From UHGV virus genome UHGV-0124814: 16,162 nucleotides of DNA. One strand, 5' to 3'. The first letter of the stretch is position 1. Each line of letters begins with the position of its first letter. Of the stretch, positions 761-16,112 are shown piece by piece. The notes under the pieces are model-generated. The model searched no databases, was not told the origin of the DNA, and worked only from the letters and a program-made list of their open reading frames with translations. The DNA is from a virus. A program made the position numbers and the translations under genes.

Positions 761-1345
761 TTACTCACTGACAGGGTTCGTAGGCCACTCAATATCAGGT
801 GCAGTTGATGTATCAACACGGTTCAGCAACACCCGATACTTCTTCCAGGCTTCCAGCAACGAGTTTTCTTCCTCCGTTGCGATTTCCAGATCTGCAGCAT
901 CCTGAAGCGGCGCAATATGCTCACTGGCTACCTGCATCAGGTTGTTTTTTGTTTCTTCCGCCTCCCGGATCCGGAACAGTTTTTCTGCTTCCGTATCCTT
1001 CACCCAGGCTGTGCCGTTCCACTTCTGAAACTCCCCTTCCGGCGATAACCAGGTAACATTTTCCGGTAACGGACCGAGTTCAGAAATAAATAACGCGTCC
1101 CCTGACGCTACGTCATAAACCGTTTTACCCCGATGGTCTTCAACGAGATGCCACGATGACTCATCACTGTTGAAAACAGCCACGAAGCCAGCCGGAATAT
1201 CTGGCGGTGCAATATAGGTACTGTTTGCAGGCAGACCTGTATGAGGTGGAATATATGCGTCACCTTCACCAATAAATTCATTAGTTCCGGCCAGCAGATT
1301 ATAAATTTTTATGGTCCGTGGTTGTTCACTCATTCTGAATGCCAT
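761..1345 (-). CDS. tfa: Tail fiber assembly protein Tfa
   Basis: 194-aa ORF '[31 protein letters not shown]...' matching lambda Tfa from memory; start ATG overlaps the stf stop (TAATG). Confidence 0.9.
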
Positions 1346-4862: not shown

Positions 4863-6026
4863 TCAACGAATACTGATGCCGGAAGCGGCTTTTTTGGTCA
4901 CAATCACCGTACAGTCGGTGATATTGCCTGCCCCCTGATTGCCTTTCTGGAAAATCTTAAACTCCAGAGTGACGCTACCACCACCACTAGGCATATCAAT
5001 AACTGCACTGTAACTACCGGGAATGGCCCCTTTAGTTTCTCTGGATGCGATTAATACGCCGTTTTTGCGAACTTCAAAACCATAACCCGTGTATCGCGTG
5101 CCTCCTGGGTTATTTCCGCTCCCCGGATCGTCATACGCTATACCGTTAAAAATAATGGGCGGAATAATAATCTGGCGGTCAAAGTTATGATCATCGCTGA
5201 TGGTGACTGTAACCGTACCGTTTGGTGTTTCCGTGTTACCCCACGTACCGACTTTTTTCGGGAAGGCTTTTGATACAGCTTTAACGAAATCCCCTCTGAC
5301 CTGGGTCGCCTCCAGCATGCCCTTAATCGTACAGTTCTGGTTAATCTTGACATTGTTGAGCGTTCCTGAGTTCGCATTCACACTGCCACTGATATCCGCA
5401 TTTTTAGCGGTCAGCTTTCCGTCTGATGTCAGGGAAAATACCGGAGGACTGCCACCGCTGGTAATGGTGGGGGCCGTCAGGCGCTTCAGGAACACGTCGT
5501 TCATGAATATCTGGTTGCCCTGCGCCACAAACATCGGCGTTTCATTCCCGTTTGCCGGGTCAATAAACGCGATACGGTTAGCGGCAACCAGAAACTGGCT
5601 CAGCTTGCCTTCCTCCGTGTCCTCCATGCTGAGGCCAATACCCGCGACATAATGTTTGCCGTCTTTGGTCTGCTCAATTTTGACGCCCCACATGGCATTC
5701 CATTTATCGTTAGCGTCCTTCCACTCTTTCGAAAACTCCTCCAGTCTGCTGGCGTTATCTTCCGTCAGCTCAAAGTTTTCCAGCAGTTCCTTGCCGAGAT
5801 GCGTTTTATTGATCAACCCTTTATAAAAATTCAGATAACCTTCCGCATCATCGCTCGCCCGACCGACGGCCTCCACAAATGCCGATTTACCAACGGTGTT
5901 CACGCTGCGGATATAAAAGTAATAATCATAACCTGGCTTAATATTGCTACTGGCGGCTATCCAGTACAGCGCCGTACCAAGATAACGCGCGCTGGTTTCA
6001 ACCTGCCTGATATCGATAAGCGGATT
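4863..6026 (-). pseudogene. J: C-terminal fragment (~387 codons) of tail tip/host-specificity protein J; N-terminal part of the gene deleted
   Basis: Open frame from 6026 down to the stop at 4863 with no ATG at its 5' end (first candidate is GTG at 5903); translation resembles the lambda J C-terminus as recalled. Confidence 0.8.
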
Positions 6027-6359: not shown

Positions 6360-6755
6360 TCACATTTCATAGGTAATGACATAAGTCAGATCGGCAGAAC
6401 TCCACAGGCCCGCATCATCGTCGCGCCGGTAGTCATAGCCGCTGGCCACCATACTGGTGATCAAATCTGACAGTGCCGGGACATCGCTCATCACCGGATA
6501 AATCCGGGACTCCATCCACGAATCCAGCTCTGAATCCGGCACCTGAGCAGGCAGGAAAACTTCAATATGCAGCTCCGCCTGCCAGGTATCACTGTCCAGC
6601 TCTTCGCCCGTGTATTCAGCGCCGGTGAGATAAACGGCAATTGCCGGAAAATCCGCCTCATCAAAAACAGCGGGGCGACCATCAAAAAGCGTCGCCCCGG
6701 TGTCATGCTTCTCCAGTGCATCCAGTACGGCTGCACGGAGTTCAGTATGTTTCAT
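6360..6755 (-). CDS. U: Minor tail protein U (tail terminator), apparently intact
   Basis: 131-aa ORF '[36 protein letters not shown]...' matching lambda gpU in sequence and length; start ATG overlaps the upstream stop (ATGA). Confidence 0.9.
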
Positions 6756-7165
6756 CGCTTTATTACCATTCTCAGTTGATGCTGCAGCGCATAGCCCAGC
6801 TCTTTCGGAAGACGTTCACGCCGTATCCGTTCAATATTCTGTTTAAACGCCGTGGTAAGCGGCACCGCCATCGGGATTTTCACCACATCAATGGGGTAAC
6901 GGTTTTTCCCGGCCACACGCTGCATGACATGCCACCGGCCATTTTTCAGTTGCTGAATAAACGCGCCGGGAATACGACGGTTTCCCACCACAAGCACGCT
7001 GCCGCCACCTTTCAGGGATGAACGCTGCCCCTTTTTACGACGTCTGCGGCGGGAAAGGACAACCCGCGCGTTACCCAGCTTGATTACGGGCAAATCCTGC
7101 CAGTTCTGAATGGTACGGATACTCGCGCCGAAAATGTCAGCCAGCTGCTTTTTGTTGACTTCCAT
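6752..7165 (-). pseudogene. In-frame fusion of the first 23 codons of terminase small subunit Nu1 to the C-terminal part of a Z-like tail completion protein
   Basis: 'MEVNKKQLADIFGASIRTIQNWQ' is the lambda Nu1 N-terminus, then sequence switches at ~7096 to a basic tail ('DLPVIKLGNARVVLSRRRRRKKGQ...') that I believe is the gpZ C-terminus; ATG sits at the conserved distance from cos. Confidence 0.7.
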
Positions 7166-7566: not shown

Positions 7567-7971
7567 TTACTCGAGGCCAAATTTCTTCTTTAAATAGGCC
7601 TTCGTTAACTCCAGCCCAACATCTTTGATTGTACTCAAAGGGGCATCGCTCATTGACTTTAATTTCTCAAAAACCGTAGGTTCATTTAATGCCTGGGCGA
7701 ATTCTTGTCCCTGCGCAGATAGTCGCACGTCGGTACCCATATCTAGCATATGGCCACAATGGCGCATGTAGCCCAGTTTAGTTATGTCATCCGTTATTAG
7801 ATCTTTATTACTGATATAACCTTGCTCAATAAGAAGTAGATAATGAAACATCCCTTCATTCGAGCAGATATCGTACCCCGCATTAGCTAAGTCTTTTGTA
7901 GATATAAAGGGAGTTTTCGCTTTCAAAAATACCTCAAGCATCCCCTTCATGTATTCTAAATTTTTAACCAC
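7567..7971 (-). CDS. Hypothetical protein, 134 aa, AT-rich moron
   Basis: GTG start at 7971 preceded by strong SD (TAAGGAGGTTTTT-GTG); no family recognised. Confidence 0.55.
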   Translation of the reverse strand: MVKNLEYMKGMLEVFLKAKTPFISTKDLANAGYDICSNEGMFHYLLLIEQGYISNKDLITDDITKLGYMRHCGHMLDMGTDVRLSAQGQEFAQALNEPTVFEKLKSMSDAPLSTIKDVGLELTKAYLKKKFGLE

Positions 7972-8106
7972 AAAAACCTCCTTAGGATAATTGGAGGTCT
8001 AGAATACCGTTTGCAAGCACGTTGATAAATCATTATCACAGGCACTCAATGAATGCCTGCTGTAATTGCGTACGGTAATGAACGTAAAAAACCGCCCGAG
8101 GTATAT

Positions 8107-8331
8107 TTAGACATTAGATGGCGCTTTGTCAGTATAGACCCGGTACGCCCTGACAAACATCCCGTTACATTCAGAGTCCGCCTTGATATACGCCAATTCG
8201 TAACCCCGATGCTTTAGCTCTTCACGAGCTCTTTTCTCTTCCTTAGCCATGAAGTTAAGATCTTTAATTTCTGAGTAGGTATATGTTCCCACTATAAAAT
8301 CTCTGCCTGGCCGTCCATTTATCAGTTCCAT
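8107..8331 (-). CDS. Hypothetical protein, 74 aa, AT-rich moron (ORF-track version extends to a TTG at 8397)
   Basis: ATG at 8331 preceded by GGGAGGA SD; protein 'MELINGRPGRDFIVGTYTYSEIKDLNFMAKEEKRAREELKHRGYELAYIKADSECNGMFVRAYRVYTDKAPSNV'; no family recognised. Confidence 0.5.
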   Translation of the reverse strand: MELINGRPGRDFIVGTYTYSEIKDLNFMAKEEKRAREELKHRGYELAYIKADSECNGMFVRAYRVYTDKAPSNV

Positions 8332-8424
8332 GTGTCCTCCCAAAAAGTTGGTAGTCAGAACATACCATGCTAAGCGAGGTGAAAGCACCTTTATCAAGCC
8401 CCCCGCAGATAGACTTTGTAATGG

Positions 8425-8712
8425 CTACTTCTTCAGAAATGATTCGATGAACTCACGCCGGGGATGACGATAGTTCAGAATATCTTCTGGCATCCTCATA
8501 AAGCGGTTGTTGCCGTCTTTGGCAGTAACGAAACAGCAGTGAACTCCGCAGACATCCGTTTTGATCGTGTCGCCATACTCAAAAAGCAACTGCGCCATCT
8601 TCTCTTGCCATTCTTGCGGCATAGCCTCCATGAATACTCTCGGCATCACGCAGAACGACGCATGCGTCAGGCCAAACCACAATTGCAGGTCTTTACGATA
8701 TTCTTCATCCAT
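8425..8712 (-). CDS. Hypothetical Cys-containing protein, 95 aa ('...DVCGVHCCF...'), moron
   Basis: ATG at 8712 with AAGG ~10 nt upstream, lying 19 nt downstream of a terminator-like hairpin; no family recognised. Confidence 0.5.
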   Translation of the reverse strand: MDEEYRKDLQLWFGLTHASFCVMPRVFMEAMPQEWQEKMAQLLFEYGDTIKTDVCGVHCCFVTAKDGNNRFMRMPEDILNYRHPRREFIESFLKK

Positions 8713-9497: not shown

Positions 9498-10433
9498 TCA
9501 CGATTTCAGCGCAATGACCAGTTTTGCCAGCCCATACAGCATCGGAGACACAGCAATAGCGTATGTATTTTTCCAGTAATACGTCGTGTCACCACAAATC
9601 CACGGCACATTTACAGCACTGCCACCATGACACTGCGCGTTAAACACAGTGAGGTCAGCACGAAACTGCTTCAGCATGGCTGTAAACAGCGCAGGTTGCT
9701 GTGCGTAGGTGGCGGCGCTCATGTCAAACTCTCCCTGCATCCAGCACACCGCCAGCAACACATTTTTCGGGTTCTTCTGTAATGCCGCTTTGGTGCGTGC
9801 GATCAGGTCCTGATATAACGGTTTACCCACACCCCAGCGTGCCGAATCCTGGCTGGCCCCCGTGTCCGCACTGAATGTCCCCTCCGCGCCCTGGGTGAAT
9901 GCCGAACCACCACGACAGCATGGTACCAGCAGGATCCCCGCGTTATTCGGGATATACGGAAGCAGTTTTTTGGCAATATGTAAGCCCTGGCCGACACAGC
10001 CGTACTGCCCTTTGCTCAGGTCTGCCTTCGGATGATTCAGCGTACTCATATCCTGCACATCATGCAGACAGTGGTCAGCCGGGATGATGTCGTTATACGT
10101 ACAACTCTCTCCACCCGGAGTTACCGTGCTGCGGCGCGCCAGCTGTTTAATGCGCGGATCCGGAGCATCGTAAGAATCCGGTAACGGAAGCCCTTCACCG
10201 TAGGCCATGCCGTTGGACTGTCCGGCAAGCACAACCACGTAGAACCAGTCCGGCTCAGATGAAGGGCCGACCTGTGGATCTCCTTCAATAGCCACCGCCT
10301 GCATCAGTGTGTACGGCGTAATGGCAACCGGTCCGCCATATGGCTGCCAGCCCTCTTTCAGTTTGTGTGTCAGCTTTTCCGCAAGGTCTGACGGCGACGC
10401 CGCCCTGACAACATCATAGTGTTTAAATGCCAT
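9498..10433 (-). CDS. Prophage NanS-p-like sialate 9-O-acetylesterase (N-terminal DUF1737-like segment plus esterase core), probably C-terminally truncated
   Basis: 311-aa ORF with 'VVLAGQSNGMAYGEGLPLPD', 'GILLVPCCRGGSAF', 'CWMQGEFD', 'WICGDTTYYWK' resembling E. coli NanS/YjhS as recalled; strong SD GGGAGGA; ORF ends ~100 nt before Rz. Confidence 0.8.
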   Translation of the reverse strand: MAFKHYDVVRAASPSDLAEKLTHKLKEGWQPYGGPVAITPYTLMQAVAIEGDPQVGPSSEPDWFYVVVLAGQSNGMAYGEGLPLPDSYDAPDPRIKQLARRSTVTPGGESCTYNDIIPADHCLHDVQDMSTLNHPKADLSKGQYGCVGQGLHIAKKLLPYIPNNAGILLVPCCRGGSAFTQGAEGTFSADTGASQDSARWGVGKPLYQDLIARTKAALQKNPKNVLLAVCWMQGEFDMSAATYAQQPALFTAMLKQFRADLTVFNAQCHGGSAVNVPWICGDTTYYWKNTYAIAVSPMLYGLAKLVIALKS

Positions 10434-10626
10434 GAATCCTCCCGGCCGGGATAATATTGTGAGTAAAATGAGGAGCGGGCTGAAGTCCGGAAGTTACAGG
10501 ACAATGGCAGAAGAGAGACGACAGCCCGCAATTCGAAAAAGACCGCGCAGTTGCGCAGAGTGATTACTATGGGGTATTATTCGCCAGCTGAAATATTACT
10601 TCACGTTTTATTGTTTATTCCTTGCC

Positions 10627-10655
10627 GCCCGCGTCTCCCAGCGCGGGCTTTTTTT
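10627..10655 (+). terminator. Rho-independent terminator on + strand (GCCCGCG-TCTCCCA-CGCGGGC then TTTTTTT)
   Basis: Perfect 7-bp GC stem with 7-T run read directly. Confidence 0.4.
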
Positions 10656-10658
10656 GCC

Positions 10659-10686
10659 CACAAGAAAGCCCCTCCGGAGAGGGGCT
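10659..10686 (-). terminator. Terminator-like hairpin on - strand (AGCCCCTC-UCCG-GAGGGGCU then UUUCUUGU), back-to-back with the + strand terminator
   Basis: 8-bp stem with tetraloop and T-rich tail on the - strand, downstream of the tRNA cluster and upstream of the esterase gene. Confidence 0.35.
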
Positions 10687-10923
10687 GGAGAGTGGCGCTA
10701 TGTGCCATTGCATGGTGCCGGGTGCCTCCCGGTGAATTCAGTACCAGCACCTGAATCCGCGATTATCCCATATACCTACTCGCTGATTGCCCCTCCGCAC
10801 AGGGGGATTCACCATGCCAGTTTCTTTTAACAAACTCCCCGCAAACCAGACAACAGTCAACCGTCTGAATTGTGAGACATTTAAAAAAAAAGGCCCGCAA
10901 AAGCGAGCCAGGGAAAATAAGTG

Positions 10924-11000
10924 TGGCGCGTTGTACTGGATTCGAACCAGTGACCGATTGCTTAGAAGGCAATTGCTCTGTCCGGCTGAGCTAACAACGC
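10924..11000 (-). tRNA. tRNA-Arg (anticodon TCT)
   Basis: Reverse complement folds as cloverleaf: acceptor GCGTTGT/ACAACGC, D-arm GCTC..GAGC, anticodon stem ATTGC/GCAAT with loop CTTCTAA, T-arm ACTGG-TTCGAAT-CCAGT, encoded CCA. Confidence 0.85.
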
Positions 11001-11013
11001 ATGATGCAGATAA

Positions 11014-11090
11014 TGGACCGCCATCGGGGACTTGAACCCCGCGCAGCCAGCTTCGAAGGCTGGCGCTCTTTCCTGATGAGCTAATGGCGG
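11014..11090 (-). tRNA. tRNA-Arg (anticodon TCG)
   Basis: Cloverleaf: acceptor CCGCCAT/ATGGCGG, D-arm GCTC..GAGC, anticodon stem CCAGC/GCTGG with loop CTTCGAA, T-arm CGGGG-TTCAAGT-CCCCG, encoded CCA. Confidence 0.8.
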
Positions 11091-11097
11091 TATGTGA

Positions 11098-11173
11098 TGG
11101 TGGCCCTTGCTGGATTTGAACCAGCGACCTGGCGATTATGAGTCGCTCGCTCTCACCACTGAGCTAAAGGGCC
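11098..11173 (-). tRNA. tRNA-Ile2-like (anticodon CAT; could formally be Met)
   Basis: Cloverleaf: acceptor GGCCCTT/AAGGGCC, anticodon loop CTCATAA, T-arm GCTGG-TTCAAAT-CCAGC, CCA; overall very similar to E. coli tRNA-Ile2 as recalled. Confidence 0.8.
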
Positions 11174-11222
11174 GGAAGCAGAATAATAATGGTGCGTAAT
11201 TAATTCTGCAATCTCATCCGTT

Positions 11223-11678
11223 TCAAACGATTAAATCCTGAACTTCCCTGACTGTCTGCTCAAAACGTCCGGTCTCCAGTTCAACGCCAATCGCACGACG
11301 CCCGAGCGCCAGTGCCGCTTTTACCGTTGAACCTGAGCCCATAAAAAAATCTGCAACCTGGTCTCCCGGACGACTGCTCGCGTTGATTATCTGCTGCAAC
11401 ATTTCTGCCGGTTTTTCGCACGGATGTTTCCCTGGATAGTACTGCACCGGTTTATACGTCCACACATCGGTGTACGGCACCTGCACCGTCACACCGAAAT
11501 ACCTCCGCAAATTTTTATATTCACTCAGCAGTTCCATATACTGCCGGTTCAGCTCACTGTATGTGCTGACCAGTTGGTAATGGGACTTTTCCAGTTCTCC
11601 CCGCTGATGTTTCTCTTCTGCCACCCGGGCAAACAGCGACTGTAATTTCAGATAATCGCTTTCGTTCGGTATCCGGCG
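11223..11678 (-). pseudogene. C-terminal fragment of a phage DNA N6-adenine/N4-cytosine methyltransferase; N-terminal half absent
   Basis: Frame open from 11678 with no ATG (first start-like codon is GTG at 11624); contains 'HPCEKP' and C-terminal SAM motif 'FFMGSGST' but no DPPY-type motif. Confidence 0.65.
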
Positions 11679-11753
11679 TTAATTGTTAACTGGTTAACGT
11701 CACCTGGAGGCACCAGGCACCGCATCACAAAATTCATTGTTGAGGACGCGATA

Positions 11754-11942
11754 ATGGAAACGTTATTACCAAACGTTAATACGTCTGAAGGTTGTTTTGA
11801 AATTGGTGTCACTATCAGTAACCCTGTATTTACTGAAGATGCCATTAACAAGAGAAAACACGAACGGGAGCTATTAAATAAAATATGCATTCTTTCAATG
11901 CTGGCCCGTTTACGTCCGATACAAAAAGGATGCTGGCAATGA
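11754..11942 (+). CDS. Hypothetical small protein, 62 aa
   Basis: ATG preceded by SD (GAGGACGCGATA-ATG); stop overlaps the next ATG (ATGA); no family recognised. Confidence 0.45.
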   Translation: METLLPNVNTSEGCFEIGVTISNPVFTEDAINKRKHERELLNKICILSMLARLRPIQKGCWQ

Positions 11943-12222: not shown

Positions 12223-14694
12223 ATGAGTAAAGTCTTTATTTGCGCCGCCATTCCGGACGAACAGGCAATAAAGGAAGAAGGTGCAGTCGCTGTAGCCACT
12301 GCCATTGAAGCTGGCGACGAACGCCGTGCTCGAGCAAAATTTCACTGGCAATTCCTGGAACATTATCCGGCTGCTCAGGACTGCGCTTATAAATTTCTTG
12401 TTTGCGAGGATAAACCCGGTATACCCCGCCCTGCCCTCGATTCCTGGGATGCTGAATATATGCAGGAAAACCGCTGGGATGAGGAGTCTGCTTCCTTTGT
12501 CCCGGTTGAGACTGAATCCGATCCGATGAACGTCACTTTTGACAAGCTGGCCCCTGAAGTACAGAACGCTGTCATGGTTAAGTTCGACACATGTGAAAAC
12601 ATCACCGTTGATATGGTTATTAGCGCACAGGAATTGTTGCAGGAAGACATGGCAACATTCGACGGACATATCGTTGAAGCGTTGATGAAAATGCCAGATG
12701 TTAACGCCATGTATCCGGAGCTTAAGCTGCATGCCATCGGGTGGGTTAAGCATAAATGTAAGCCTGGTGCCAAATGGCCCGAAATTCAGGCAGAGATGCG
12801 CATCTGGAAAAAACGTCGCGAAGGTGAACGCAAGGAAACCGGAAAATACACGTCTGTTGTTGATCTCGCCCGCGCCAGAACCAATCAACAGCACACTGAA
12901 AATTCAACAGGAAAAATCAACCCGGTCATTGCTGCCATTCATCGCGAATACAAGCAGACATGGAAAACACTGGATGACGAACTGGCCTACGCTCTCTGGC
13001 CTGGTGATGTGGATGCCGGAAACATTGACGGCAGCATCCATCGCTGGGCAAAAAATGAAGTTATCGACAACGACCGCGAAGACTGGAAGCGTATCTCGGC
13101 ATCAATGCGCAAACAGCCTGATGCCCTTCGCTACGACCGCCAGACTATTTTTGGCCTTGTCCGTGAACGTCCGATCGACATTCACAAAGACCCTGTGGCA
13201 CTGAACAAATACATTACTGAATACCTGACTACAAAGGGCGTGTTTGAAGATGAAGGAACAAATCAGAGCGCAACTGATACTCTCTCGTCGCCAGTACCAG
13301 AAACTGATGCAGTGGAAACGGCAATTCCGGACAACGAAAAAACCGAATGCAAAGTGGAAGTCGAACCATCTGTAGAACGTGAGGGGCCGTTCTACTTCCT
13401 CTTCACCGACAAGGATGGCGAAAAATACGGTCGCGCAAACAAACTTTCTGGTCTGGATAAGGCGCTGTCTGCTGGGGCTACTGAAATCACGAAAGAAGAA
13501 TATTTCGCCCGCAAAAACGGTACATACTCAGGTTCACAACAAAATACTGGTGCATCTGACACGACCGCACAACCAGGGTCAGTAAAAGTTACCGCTGACG
13601 AAGTAAACAAAATTATGCAGGCAGCCAATATCAGCCAGCCTGACGCCGATGAACTGCTTGCAGTATCACGTGGTGAATTTGTTGAAGGGATTAGCGACCC
13701 GAATGATCCGAAATGGGTAAAGGGGATTGAAACCCGCGATTCTGTAAACCAGAACCAGCAAGAATCGGAACAGAACGACCAGAAAGCGGAACAAAACAGC
13801 CCAAATGCGTTACAAAACGAGCCAGAAACGAAACAGCCTGAATCAGTGGCGCAACAGGAAGTGGAAAAAGTCTGCACCGCCTGCGGTCAGACCGGCGGCG
13901 GCAACTGCCCTGATTGTGGCGCGGTAATGGGCGACGCAACATACCAGGAAACATTCGATGAAGAGTATCAGCCTGAAGTTCAGGAAGATGATCCGGAGGA
14001 AATGGAAGGCGCTGAACATCCACACAAGGAGAACACTGGCGGCAATAAGCATCACGATAGCGATAATGAAACTGGCGAGACGGCAGATCACTCAATTAAG
14101 GTGAACGGTCATCAAGAAATCACATCCACCAGCAGGACGTGTGACCATCTAATGATCGACCTTGAAACCATGGGAAAAAATCCTGATGCCCCGATCATCT
14201 CAATAGGTGCAATATTTTTCGATCCGCAAACCGGAGATATGGGACCGGAATTTAGTAAGACTATCGATCTGGAAACTGCTGGCGGAGTCATTGATCGGGA
14301 CACCATTAAATGGTGGCTTAAGCAATCACGCGAAGCGCAATCTGCCATTATGACCGATGAAATCCCGTTAGATGATGCACTGTTACAATTGCGGGAATTT
14401 ATCGACGAAAACTCCGGTGAATTTTTTGTTCAGGTTTGGGGAAATGGAGCCAACTTCGACAACACGATTTTGCGCCGTTCATACGAACGGCAGGGGATCC
14501 CCTGCCCGTGGCGTTACTACAACGATCGCGATGTACGCACAATCGTTGAGCTGGGGAAAGCCATAGACTTCGATGCCAGAACGGCTATTCCATTCGAAGG
14601 TGAGCGCCATAATGCACTTGATGACGCCCGTTACCAGGCAAAATACGTTTCAGCTATCTGGCAAAAACTGATCCCGAGTCAGGCTGATTTTTAA
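12223..14694 (+). CDS. Large prophage early-region protein with C-terminal DEDDh (DnaQ-like) 3'-5' exonuclease domain, central Cys4 zinc-ribbon-like motif and acidic linker
   Basis: 823-aa ORF with SD GAGGT; C-terminal motifs 'MIDLETMG', 'WGNGANFDNT', 'HNALDDARY'; 'CTACGQTGGGNCPDCG'; position immediately upstream of xis/int. Confidence 0.8.
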   Translation: MSKVFICAAIPDEQAIKEEGAVAVATAIEAGDERRARAKFHWQFLEHYPAAQDCAYKFLVCEDKPGIPRPALDSWDAEYMQENRWDEESASFVPVETESDPMNVTFDKLAPEVQNAVMVKFDTCENITVDMVISAQELLQEDMATFDGHIVEALMKMPDVNAMYPELKLHAIGWVKHKCKPGAKWPEIQAEMRIWKKRREGERKETGKYTSVVDLARARTNQQHTENSTGKINPVIAAIHREYKQTWKTLDDELAYALWPGDVDAGNIDGSIHRWAKNEVIDNDREDWKRISASMRKQPDALRYDRQTIFGLVRERPIDIHKDPVALNKYITEYLTTKGVFEDEGTNQSATDTLSSPVPETDAVETAIPDNEKTECKVEVEPSVEREGPFYFLFTDKDGEKYGRANKLSGLDKALSAGATEITKEEYFARKNGTYSGSQQNTGASDTTAQPGSVKVTADEVNKIMQAANISQPDADELLAVSRGEFVEGISDPNDPKWVKGIETRDSVNQNQQESEQNDQKAEQNSPNALQNEPETKQPESVAQQEVEKVCTACGQTGGGNCPDCGAVMGDATYQETFDEEYQPEVQEDDPEEMEGAEHPHKENTGGNKHHDSDNETGETADHSIKVNGHQEITSTSRTCDHLMIDLETMGKNPDAPIISIGAIFFDPQTGDMGPEFSKTIDLETAGGVIDRDTIKWWLKQSREAQSAIMTDEIPLDDALLQLREFIDENSGEFFVQVWGNGANFDNTILRRSYERQGIPCPWRYYNDRDVRTIVELGKAIDFDARTAIPFEGERHNALDDARYQAKYVSAIWQKLIPSQADF

Positions 14695-14755: not shown

Positions 14756-15025
14756 ATGAGCGAACAGTACCTGATAACGCTCGACGAGTGGAAACCAAAA
14801 CGGTTCAGTCTCCCAATAACAAACACTACCCTGGTGAAATACGGAAAACTAGGATACATCGTTCCAAGACCACAAAAAATTCGTGGGCGTTGGCTGATAG
14901 ATCGCCGAGCAGTATTTGTTGGGCCTGGTGAAACGGGAATTGCGCCGGAAATTCATACTGGCGATGATGATGCACTGAAGGAGATTTTAACTCATGTCAC
15001 CGAGGCCACGAAAAAACAGCACTGA
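14756..15025 (+). CDS. xis: Excisionase (Xis-like)
   Basis: 89-aa ORF from ATG at 14756 (SD GGAG 8 nt upstream), immediately upstream of and overlapping int by 32 nt. Confidence 0.65.
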   Translation: MSEQYLITLDEWKPKRFSLPITNTTLVKYGKLGYIVPRPQKIRGRWLIDRRAVFVGPGETGIAPEIHTGDDDALKEILTHVTEATKKQH

Positions 15026-16112
15026 CGTAGCCGGTCTTTACGAAAAGTTTGATCGCAGAACTGGCAGAGTTTACTACCAGTATAAAAATCCTGTGACTGG
15101 AAAATTTCACGGACTCGGAACAGACAAAGGTAAGGCAGAAAAAATCGCTTCCACAGCCAATCAGCGAATAGCTGCAGCAGAAGCTGAATATTTCATGCGC
15201 AAAATTGATGAAAGTCCGTCAGCAACAAAACGTCGGGGTATCAGATTAAAGGCATGGGTTGATCGATATCTGAAAATACAGGACACGCGACTGAAAAATG
15301 GAGATATTGCAGCTACAACTCACAAAGAAAAAACTCGAATGGCTGCATACCTGGTTTCCCGTCTGGGAAACCCCCCATTGAAAGAACTGGAAGTAAGAGA
15401 CTTTGCATTAATACTGGATGAGTGGCTGGATAAAGACATGGTCAGCACAGCGAGAGTAAATCGTGGATTATGGGTTGATATTTATAAAGAAGCACAGCAT
15501 GCAGGGGAAGTTCCTCCTGGATGGAATCCTCCGGAGGCTACCCGTAAACCGATCCCTAAAGTAACCAGAGCCAGGCTCACCATGGAAGACTGGCAAAAAA
15601 TTTACAATGCAACGCCTGAAAAACACTTTATCCGTAACGCAATGCTTCTTGCGATTGTTACTGGTCAGCGCCGTGATGACATTTGCCACATGCGTTTTTC
15701 AGATGTGTGGAACGAACACTTGCATATCACCCAGGGAAAAACCGGAATGCGTCTGGCGTTACCGCTTACACTACGCTGTGATGCCATTGGGATAACGTTA
15801 AAAGAAGTTATTGATGGGTGCCGAGACAGAATATTAAGTCCATATCTAATCCATAGTCGGCACCAGAAACAACCGAAGCCGATGAGTAAAGACAACCTGA
15901 GCGACTACTTTGCCAAAGCACGGGATCTGGCTGGGATAATTCCACCAGCAGGAAAAACTCCGCCAACATTTCATGAACAACGCTCTCTATCAGAACGGCT
16001 GTACCGTGCACAGGGTATCGATACAAAAACATTACTAGGACATAAAGTCCAGGCAACCACCGATCGCTATAACGATACTCGAGGTCAGGAATGGGTTAAG
16101 CTGGTTATTTGA
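14994..16112 (+). CDS. int: Tyrosine site-specific integrase, lambda Int family
   Basis: 372-aa ORF; C-terminal catalytic region '...TGQRRDDICHMRFSDV...', 'HEQRSLSERLY', 'LLGHKVQATTDRYNDTRGQEW' parallels lambda Int RHR-Y motifs; distinct from lambda Int itself. Confidence 0.9.
   Translation: MSPRPRKNSTDVAGLYEKFDRRTGRVYYQYKNPVTGKFHGLGTDKGKAEKIASTANQRIAAAEAEYFMRKIDESPSATKRRGIRLKAWVDRYLKIQDTRLKNGDIAATTHKEKTRMAAYLVSRLGNPPLKELEVRDFALILDEWLDKDMVSTARVNRGLWVDIYKEAQHAGEVPPGWNPPEATRKPIPKVTRARLTMEDWQKIYNATPEKHFIRNAMLLAIVTGQRRDDICHMRFSDVWNEHLHITQGKTGMRLALPLTLRCDAIGITLKEVIDGCRDRILSPYLIHSRHQKQPKPMSKDNLSDYFAKARDLAGIIPPAGKTPPTFHEQRSLSERLYRAQGIDTKTLLGHKVQATTDRYNDTRGQEWVKLVI

Follow-up and report, generated by a model that had tools for sequence, protein, structure and literature searches.

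The DNA considered here is UHGV virus genome UHGV-0124814, a stretch of 16,162 nucleotides that we refer to as the window, and the region of interest lies at its positions 10,434 to 11,173, where three tRNA genes are followed by a spacer that leads to a sialic-acid esterase gene. On the minus strand, which is the strand of the late operon, the order of elements would be a methylase remnant, a promoter, the tRNA genes ileZ, argN and argO, a terminator, an empty cargo junction, the small RNA (sRNA) gene STnc100, an antisense sRNA gene and the esterase gene nanS-p. We hold with high confidence that this region is a toxin-free accessory (moron) segment of the late operon of a lambdoid prophage that is related to Shiga toxin (Stx) phages. 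The arrangement as such is already known and very common: the tRNA trio, its presence in non-Stx prophages, the moron site and the sRNA pair have been published and are widely annotated.

In the whole window, ARAGORN predicts exactly three tRNA genes, all on the minus strand, and the Rfam tRNA model, which has a gathering score of 29 bits, agrees in each case: ileZ at 11098-11173 (tRNA-Ile2, anticodon CAU, i.e. CAT in the DNA; 72.5 bits), argN at 11014-11090 (tRNA-Arg, anticodon UCG, codons CGA/CGG; 58 bits) and argO at 10924-11000 (tRNA-Arg, anticodon UCU, codons AGA/AGG; 70.1 bits). The cloverleaves are intact in all three, each gene encodes its CCA end, and the tandem order CAU, UCG, UCU on the late-operon strand as well as the spacing are those of ileZ2-argN2-argO2 in prophage Sp5 of strain Sakai, with which 76/76, 73/77 and 76/77 bases are identical. 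A sequence-only reading of this DNA had named tRNAs with the anticodons CAT, TCG and TCT and had equated them with the ileZ-argN-argO cluster of Stx phages, and both predictions are borne out by the acceptance of the cloverleaves and by the identity to the Sp5 genes. It had also assumed that the CAT tRNA reads the rare codon AUA, which is right in so far as ileZ resembles K-12 ileX (68/76 identical) and not metT/metU (only 54/78); the pairs C4-G69 and C5-G68 are readable in its sequence, and identical or near-identical homologues are annotated as tRNA-Ile in RefSeq. By these features the CAU tRNA is of the Ile2 type, not a methionine tRNA, and it is predicted to read AUA after lysidine modification. 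As a whole, the trio would help to decode AUA, CGA/CGG and AGA/AGG, codons that are rare in E. coli. These tRNAs are reportedly described in early papers by Schmidt et al. in 1997, Plunkett et al. in 1999 and Hayashi et al. in 2001. The only difference of argO from its Sp5 counterpart argO2 is A37 (window position 10961) in place of G37; A37 is the base that is expected for N6-threonylcarbamoyladenosine (t6A) in tRNAs that read ANN codons. In argN, the T-stem is fully paired here and contains a G-U pair in the Sp5 copy, and the window and Sp5 copies of argO and argN may thus differ in quality.

Directly after argO, a terminator scan found an intrinsic terminator on the minus strand (10883-10909; GGCTCGC-TTTT-GCGGGCC followed by nine T, hairpin 10909-10892) with a fold of -13.8 kcal/mol and z=-3.9. 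The same hairpin lies upstream of stx2A in Stx2 phages, and it would insulate the trio from the slot in which cargo genes are found. This slot can be located on the minus strand by alignment boundaries. The window segment 11671-10886, which comprises the 3' part of the methylase gene, the three tRNA genes and the argO terminator, shares 89.7% identity with LC567830, an Stx2d phage (locus L001). Homology ends at window position 10886 and is taken up again at 10879, after 1336 bp that only the phage has (L001 3287-4623). These 1336 bp are made up of the stx2A leader, stx2A, stx2B and about 40 bp more, and Sakai Sp5 has the same indel pattern, with the edges of the cassette at the same window point. 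The idea that the backbone of an Stx-phage module is present here without the toxin is hence supported by the identity of the methylase-tRNA block, and the relation to the late regions of Stx2 prophages comes down to one clean 1.3-kb stx2AB indel. The ~480 bp between tRNA genes and esterase gene had been regarded as an empty toxin slot. The slot is unoccupied, but as far as the alignment boundaries define it, it is a junction of ~6 bp (10879-10886) and not the whole spacer, and the term "empty slot" should be understood in this sense and not as a 480-bp void.

The earlier statement that no toxin open reading frame (ORF) is present between the tRNA genes and the esterase gene stands. A tblastn search with Stx2A and Stx2B against the whole window had a best E of 0.59, a low-stringency blastn search with the stx2 cassette DNA of Sp5 matched the window only with the two outermost edges of the cassette, and the small ORFs in the spacer had no Pfam match. 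If an Stx-converting prophage is defined by the presence of stxA and stxB, the window does not belong to this class. Other cargo is found at the same junction: tciA/tciB (TerB-like) in phage JLK-2012, in which homology to the window begins at 10887, immediately past tciB, TciA/TerB in Sakai Sp11, and TerB/DUF3927 genes in many genomes. In the stx-free prophage PPyecE_EH1910, TciA/TerB-like genes, a transcriptional regulator and a plasmid-stabilisation protein are annotated in this interval, and two Stx2a phages have iraM alongside stx2 there. In these comparisons the junction behaves as a moron insertion site that accommodates unrelated cargo between conserved flanks. The moron concept itself is said to originate with Juhala et al. 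in 2000.

The spacer that follows argO (10434-10923, 490 bp) ends at the ATG of nanS-p (10433, minus strand), which is the gene directly downstream of the trio. It had been described as holding only two back-to-back terminator hairpins. Two adjacent hairpins are indeed real, one on the minus strand at 10686-10667 and one on the plus strand at 10627-10648, each with a T-run, but the word "only" has to be withdrawn, as the hairpins are the terminators of two convergent sRNA genes. Two further minus-strand hairpins had not been listed, namely the argO terminator (10909-10892) and a hairpin at 10558-10543.

The sense sRNA gene is STnc100 (RF02076) at 10656-10846 on the minus strand, which cmscan detects in full length (model positions 1-206) and with 139.4 bits, where 47 is the gathering score. 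The hairpin at 10686-10667, after which the T-run follows, is its terminator. This STnc100 copy is a homologue of EcOnc05 from Sakai Sp4 and of EcOnc27 from Sp5, and it is PasD-related. Northern analyses detected EcOnc05 of Sp4 as an RNA of ~222 nt and EcOnc27 of Sp5 with ~235/247 nt, of which the 247-nt form was destabilised without Hfq (Tree et al. 2014, PMC4104026). The northern probe used for EcOnc05 in that study matches the plus strand of the window at 10754-10788 with 0 mismatches, so the RNA detected in Sakai corresponds to the minus-strand STnc100 copy, and the EcOnc27 probe falls inside the STnc100 match of Sp5. STnc100 has been located 75 nt downstream of stx2 (PMC12370729, 2025), and in our alignments it lies 75 nt past stx2B in the Stx2d phage LC567830, past stx2B in Sp5, past tciB in phage JLK-2012 and also in toxin-free loci. 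A recent preprint relates STnc100 to PasD and associates it with the sialic-acid esterase gene (Zhu, Shabalina, Storz 2026, 10.64898/2026.05.13.724894). A 22-nt motif, TCACCNGGAGGCACCNGGCACC, occurs twice in the window (10714-10735, minus; 11700-11721, plus), where none would be expected by chance. The copy at 10714-10735 is the inner hairpin of STnc100 (CCGGG-AGGCA-CCCGG), and the copy at 11700-11721, about 35 nt upstream of dicB, has a compensatory change (CCTGG-AGGCA-CCAGG); it is a hairpin element common to two different prophage transcripts.

Convergent to STnc100, an antisense sRNA gene of the EcOnc08/21/42 type lies on the plus strand, placed at 10490-10655 with a tentative 5' end, where the terminator at 10627-10648 with its T-run to 10655 marks the 3' end. 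The EcOnc08/21/42 probe is of the late-sense strand and corresponds to about 10551-10585 of the window, with 5 mismatches. In Sakai Sp4, the Hfq peaks EcOnc08 and EcOnc21 obtained by cross-linking and analysis of cDNA (CRAC) lie on the strand opposite to EcOnc05, whereby the transfer of the Sp4 peaks to window coordinates assumes that the Sakai genome versions have no offset at Sp4. With the ~271 nt that northern blots indicate in Sakai, the antisense RNA would start near 10385 and would overlap the start codon of nanS-p. Covariance models of AsxR/AgvB (RF02703/RF02702) had no match at E<=10 in window 10400-10950, while the Sp5 control reached 88 bits for AsxR; membership of the antisense gene in this family was therefore rejected, and the gene has to be regarded as a different allele at the same position. 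A weak OmrA-B-like match (25 bits, below the gathering score of 40) covers mostly the terminator and was taken as chance.

Such an organization agrees with what has been described for Sakai, where moron coding sequences (CDSs) lie downstream of PR', and where convergent sRNAs are situated in the interval from the moron CDS to a conserved downstream ORF in Sp3, 4, 5, 9, 10, 11, 15 and 17 (Tree et al. 2014, PMC4104026). From enterohaemorrhagic E. coli (EHEC) without induction, EcOnc05 and EcOnc08 have been isolated bound to Hfq, and STnc100 and its antisense partner are independent Hfq-associated transcripts in EHEC. Expression of both sRNAs is also presumed for the strain that carries the window prophage. 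An annotation that is centred on proteins misses both spacer sRNAs or mis-calls them as hypothetical ORFs. PGAP and PHANOTATE place small "hypothetical" ORFs on the sRNA region of other genomes, and in the window an 82-aa ORF (10787-11035, plus), which is antisense to argO and STnc100, belongs to PHROG 27294, a family of unknown function (E=3e-16). These small ORF calls, including PHROG 27294, are probably spurious calls on conserved non-coding DNA.

How could the trio be transcribed in this prophage? In the window copy, Q and PR' are deleted; they are at the expected place in the aligned locus L003 and in the close relative L012, a prophage that is 100% identical to the window over 11671-10699. 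A sigma-70-type promoter-like site, read from the sequence, lies on the minus strand at 11183-11211, 9 nt upstream of ileZ, and consists of a -35 element TTGCAG (11211-11206), a 17-nt spacer and a -10 element TATTAT (11188-11183). Across 8 aligned loci the columns TTG and TTATTAT do not vary, and this holds also for Sp4 and Sp11, in which the upstream sequence is otherwise unrelated. Sy et al. have been cited in this context, and differential RNA sequencing (dRNA-seq) has mapped a primary transcription start for these tRNAs in lysogenic Sakai. The trio is thus most likely transcribed from its own promoter, and because of this promoter the tRNAs are probably still expressed here without Q and PR'.

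One objection to this view is that the tRNA-sRNA core might be an inert relic that has not been transcribed since the deletion of Q/PR' and that is intact by chance. The loss of Q, PR' and the entire early region and the truncation of both neighbouring genes would fit such a relic, but it would have to be a relic with three intact cloverleaves and encoded CCA ends, with conserved -35/-10 elements directly upstream of ileZ that recur in unrelated contexts, and with tRNAs that survive also the different deletion pattern of L012. The transcription start mapped in lysogenic Sakai and the Hfq-bound EcOnc05 and EcOnc08 of uninduced EHEC also argue against inertness, and we therefore regard this explanation as improbable. 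The opposite idea would be that the 1.3-kb core of promoter, three tRNA genes, STnc100 and antisense partner is a self-transcribed, host-beneficial unit that is preferentially kept during decay. This is a tentative proposal that we consider possible but doubtful. The core is kept here while both flanking genes are truncated, and L012 has lost other parts and has the same tRNAs with 100% identity; these two independent decay patterns are compatible with a selective retention of the core, without demonstrating it.

To estimate how common the toxin-free layout is, a junction probe of 125 nt (window 10826-10950) was used that covers the 3' end of argO, the terminator and the 5' end of STnc100. Of 5,426 complete E. 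coli genomes, 937 contain this probe without interruption, with 96-100% identity in the sampled rows, and partial matches break at window position 10886/10887. The sequence-only reading had left it open whether the missing toxin reflects an ancestral empty state or a scar after cargo loss, and of these two the unoccupied inherited site is to be favoured. For a scar, stx would once have been present between argO and STnc100 and would have been precisely deleted. Stx2 phages with the same flanks do have stx2AB exactly at 10879-10886, the ATCTG repeat that borders the cassette could mediate a precise excision, and several other deletions are clear in this prophage, but these other deletions are ragged and cut into genes, whereas this junction is clean. 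Moreover, no stx-derived base is left, the junction sequence is common to hundreds of genomes and to infectious stx-free phages, and the identity of the flanks is 97-100% with toxin-free prophages and only 80-90% with Stx phages. For these reasons we consider a scar to be very unlikely. In this view, stx was either never present at this site in the lineage or disappeared from it so long ago that no trace is left, and a recent deletion is not the reason for the empty slot. Finding this layout without a toxin should not be taken as evidence for a loss of stx.

Several points weigh against our interpretation of the region as an unoccupied accessory segment. The polarity of the stx indel, insertion or loss, is inferred and lies beyond proof from these comparisons. 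The 5-bp repeat ATCTG that borders the stx2 cassette in Stx2 phages fits an insertion as well as a precise loss, and it was set aside as mechanistic evidence, being too short to be told from chance. The promoter-like site agrees with the consensus at 8/12 positions, which is under the threshold of the scan tool, and was not called by it. Lastly, the ORFs of the window prophage contain 7.5 AUA, 5.8 AGA and 3.3 AGG codons per 1000, and as the K-12 averages are about 4.3, 2.1 and 1.2 per 1000, the enrichment of rare codons is roughly two-fold and thus modest.

The closest described counterpart is Sakai Sp4 (NC_002695.2 1179419-1182008), which has ileZ1-argN1-argO1, a 489-bp spacer and ECs_1088 (nanS-p) without stx. 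Sp4 is 97.3% identical over window 11175-9557 (1.6 kb), with a spacer identity of 98%, and it contains the same STnc100 copy (138 bits); Hfq-bound EcOnc05 and EcOnc08/21 have been mapped in Sp4. It differs from the window by a gene for an AraC-family regulator upstream of ileZ, where the window has the methylase remnant, by a full-length nanS-p, and by a few bases in the antisense region, including the 5 in the EcOnc08 probe site. PPwrbA-type prophages also match the toxin-free layout. Stx-free members of the Stx-phage subfamily Sepvirinae (vB_EcoP_phi296/phi315/phi367, TL-2011a, Nil3) likewise have the trio directly followed by STnc100 and nanS-p without stx. Unlike the window, which is what remains after deletions, these are complete inducible or infectious phages, and their identity to it is about 90% (about 95-97% for Nil3).

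Stx2-converting phages (Sp5/933W type; Stx2_112808, LC567830) share a near-identical to identical trio, the argO terminator, STnc100 about 75 nt past the cargo site, the convergent antisense sRNA and then nanS-p. In contrast to the window, their junction is occupied by the 1.34-kb stx2AB cassette and Q, PR' and the lysis genes are retained, and Sp5 has AsxR as antisense sRNA where the window has an EcOnc08-type allele. Within this region, the Stx2d phage agrees with the window at every base of a 113-bp block (window 10655-10543, L001 4872-4984), which comprises the 3' part of the antisense sRNA together with the hairpin upstream of nanS-p, whereas the surrounding DNA is about 80% identical. 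This 100% local identity shows an exchange of modules, and indicates a recent one for this sRNA allele, between toxin-free and Stx phages. The moron site of Tree et al. (PMC4104026) resembles the window in its position between the Q/PR' region and a conserved esterase ORF, in the alternative cargo of relatives, and in the combination of a sense sRNA of ~220-250 nt with an antisense sRNA and back-to-back terminators; it differs in that the window is without a moron CDS and that PR' and Q are deleted.

That the tRNA genes are left over from a tRNA integration site of the chromosome (attB/attL) instead of being phage cargo is a notion to which we give practically no credence: many prophages do integrate at tRNA genes, and Zhu et al. 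2026 (10.64898/2026.05.13.724894) read tRNA matches near Pas/STnc100 genes as insertion hot spots, but the trio is internal, between methylase and nanS-p and about 5 kb from the integrase end, a related prophage sits between potB and potC, and it is refuted by linear genomes of infectious phages and of Stx phages, which have these three genes at the same internal position.

Both genes that flank the accessory segment have been cut by deletions. The truncated nanS-p (sialate O-acetylesterase) at 9498-10433 on the minus strand encodes 311 aa, with an N-terminal DUF1737 match (5e-16) and a match to positions 4-157 of the 226 positions of the SASA profile. Its homology to full-length genes (about 617-650 aa) stops at 9557, where it is joined to sequence that lies just upstream of Rz; by this deletion, the C-terminus of nanS-p, the holin and the endolysin are gone. 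On the other side, the 3' remnant of a DNA methyltransferase gene (11223-11671, minus) matches only positions 113-219 of the 221 positions of the Pfam N6_N4_Mtase profile, and its homology to intact genes of ~350 aa begins at 11671, with the deletion junction at 11666-11671. Window 11700-11666 matches a site of L012 that is 7.1 kb away and just upstream of dicB. Relative to L012, the window has therefore undergone a 7.1-kb deletion, which fused the inside of the methylase gene with a position 83 bp upstream of dicB and took away Q, PR' and the immunity region/early region. The cell-division inhibitor gene dicB itself (11754-11942, plus) is intact and has lost its normal upstream transcription unit; a DicF gene was not found by Rfam in the window. 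None of the complete E. coli genomes contains the entire window, and a sequence pattern for the methylase/dicB deletion junction had 0 matches in genome_contigs, which is of little weight as this collection covers each species by one genome.

L012 is located between potB and potC of the dog strain Z1323PEC0011. Q, the early region and a complete methylase gene are still present in it, and the part from mid-STnc100 through lom is missing; going by this relative, the window prophage was apparently also integrated at potB/potC. The late genes of the window read leftward, while int (14994-16112), with xis, and an exonuclease gene for 823 aa (12223-14694) read rightward. Fused or truncated ORFs were found at 6752-7165, 4863-5903 and 9498-9557, including a Nu1 N-terminus that is fused to gpZ and a J of which only the C-terminal part is present. 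From these junctions, the window is a heavily deleted prophage, in which Q, PR' and the lysis genes are no longer present.

In Sp5 (L004 3639-3765), Nil3 and phi296, a ~100-bp relic of the methylase 3' end is present upstream of ileZ, without a methylase gene there. This relic suggests that methylase and tRNA genes were linked ancestrally, and that 933W/Sp5-type phages acquired their Q-tR'-tRNA arrangement through a deletion. Elsewhere in the window, an Rfam match to IS009 at 804-1002 (minus; 224 bits, gathering score 117) falls within the gene for tail-fibre assembly (761-1345) and is a candidate RNA element within a coding region. Between Rz and the Nu1-Z fusion, three ORFs of 134, 96 and 95 aa without Pfam match (7567-8712, minus) are possible accessory genes.

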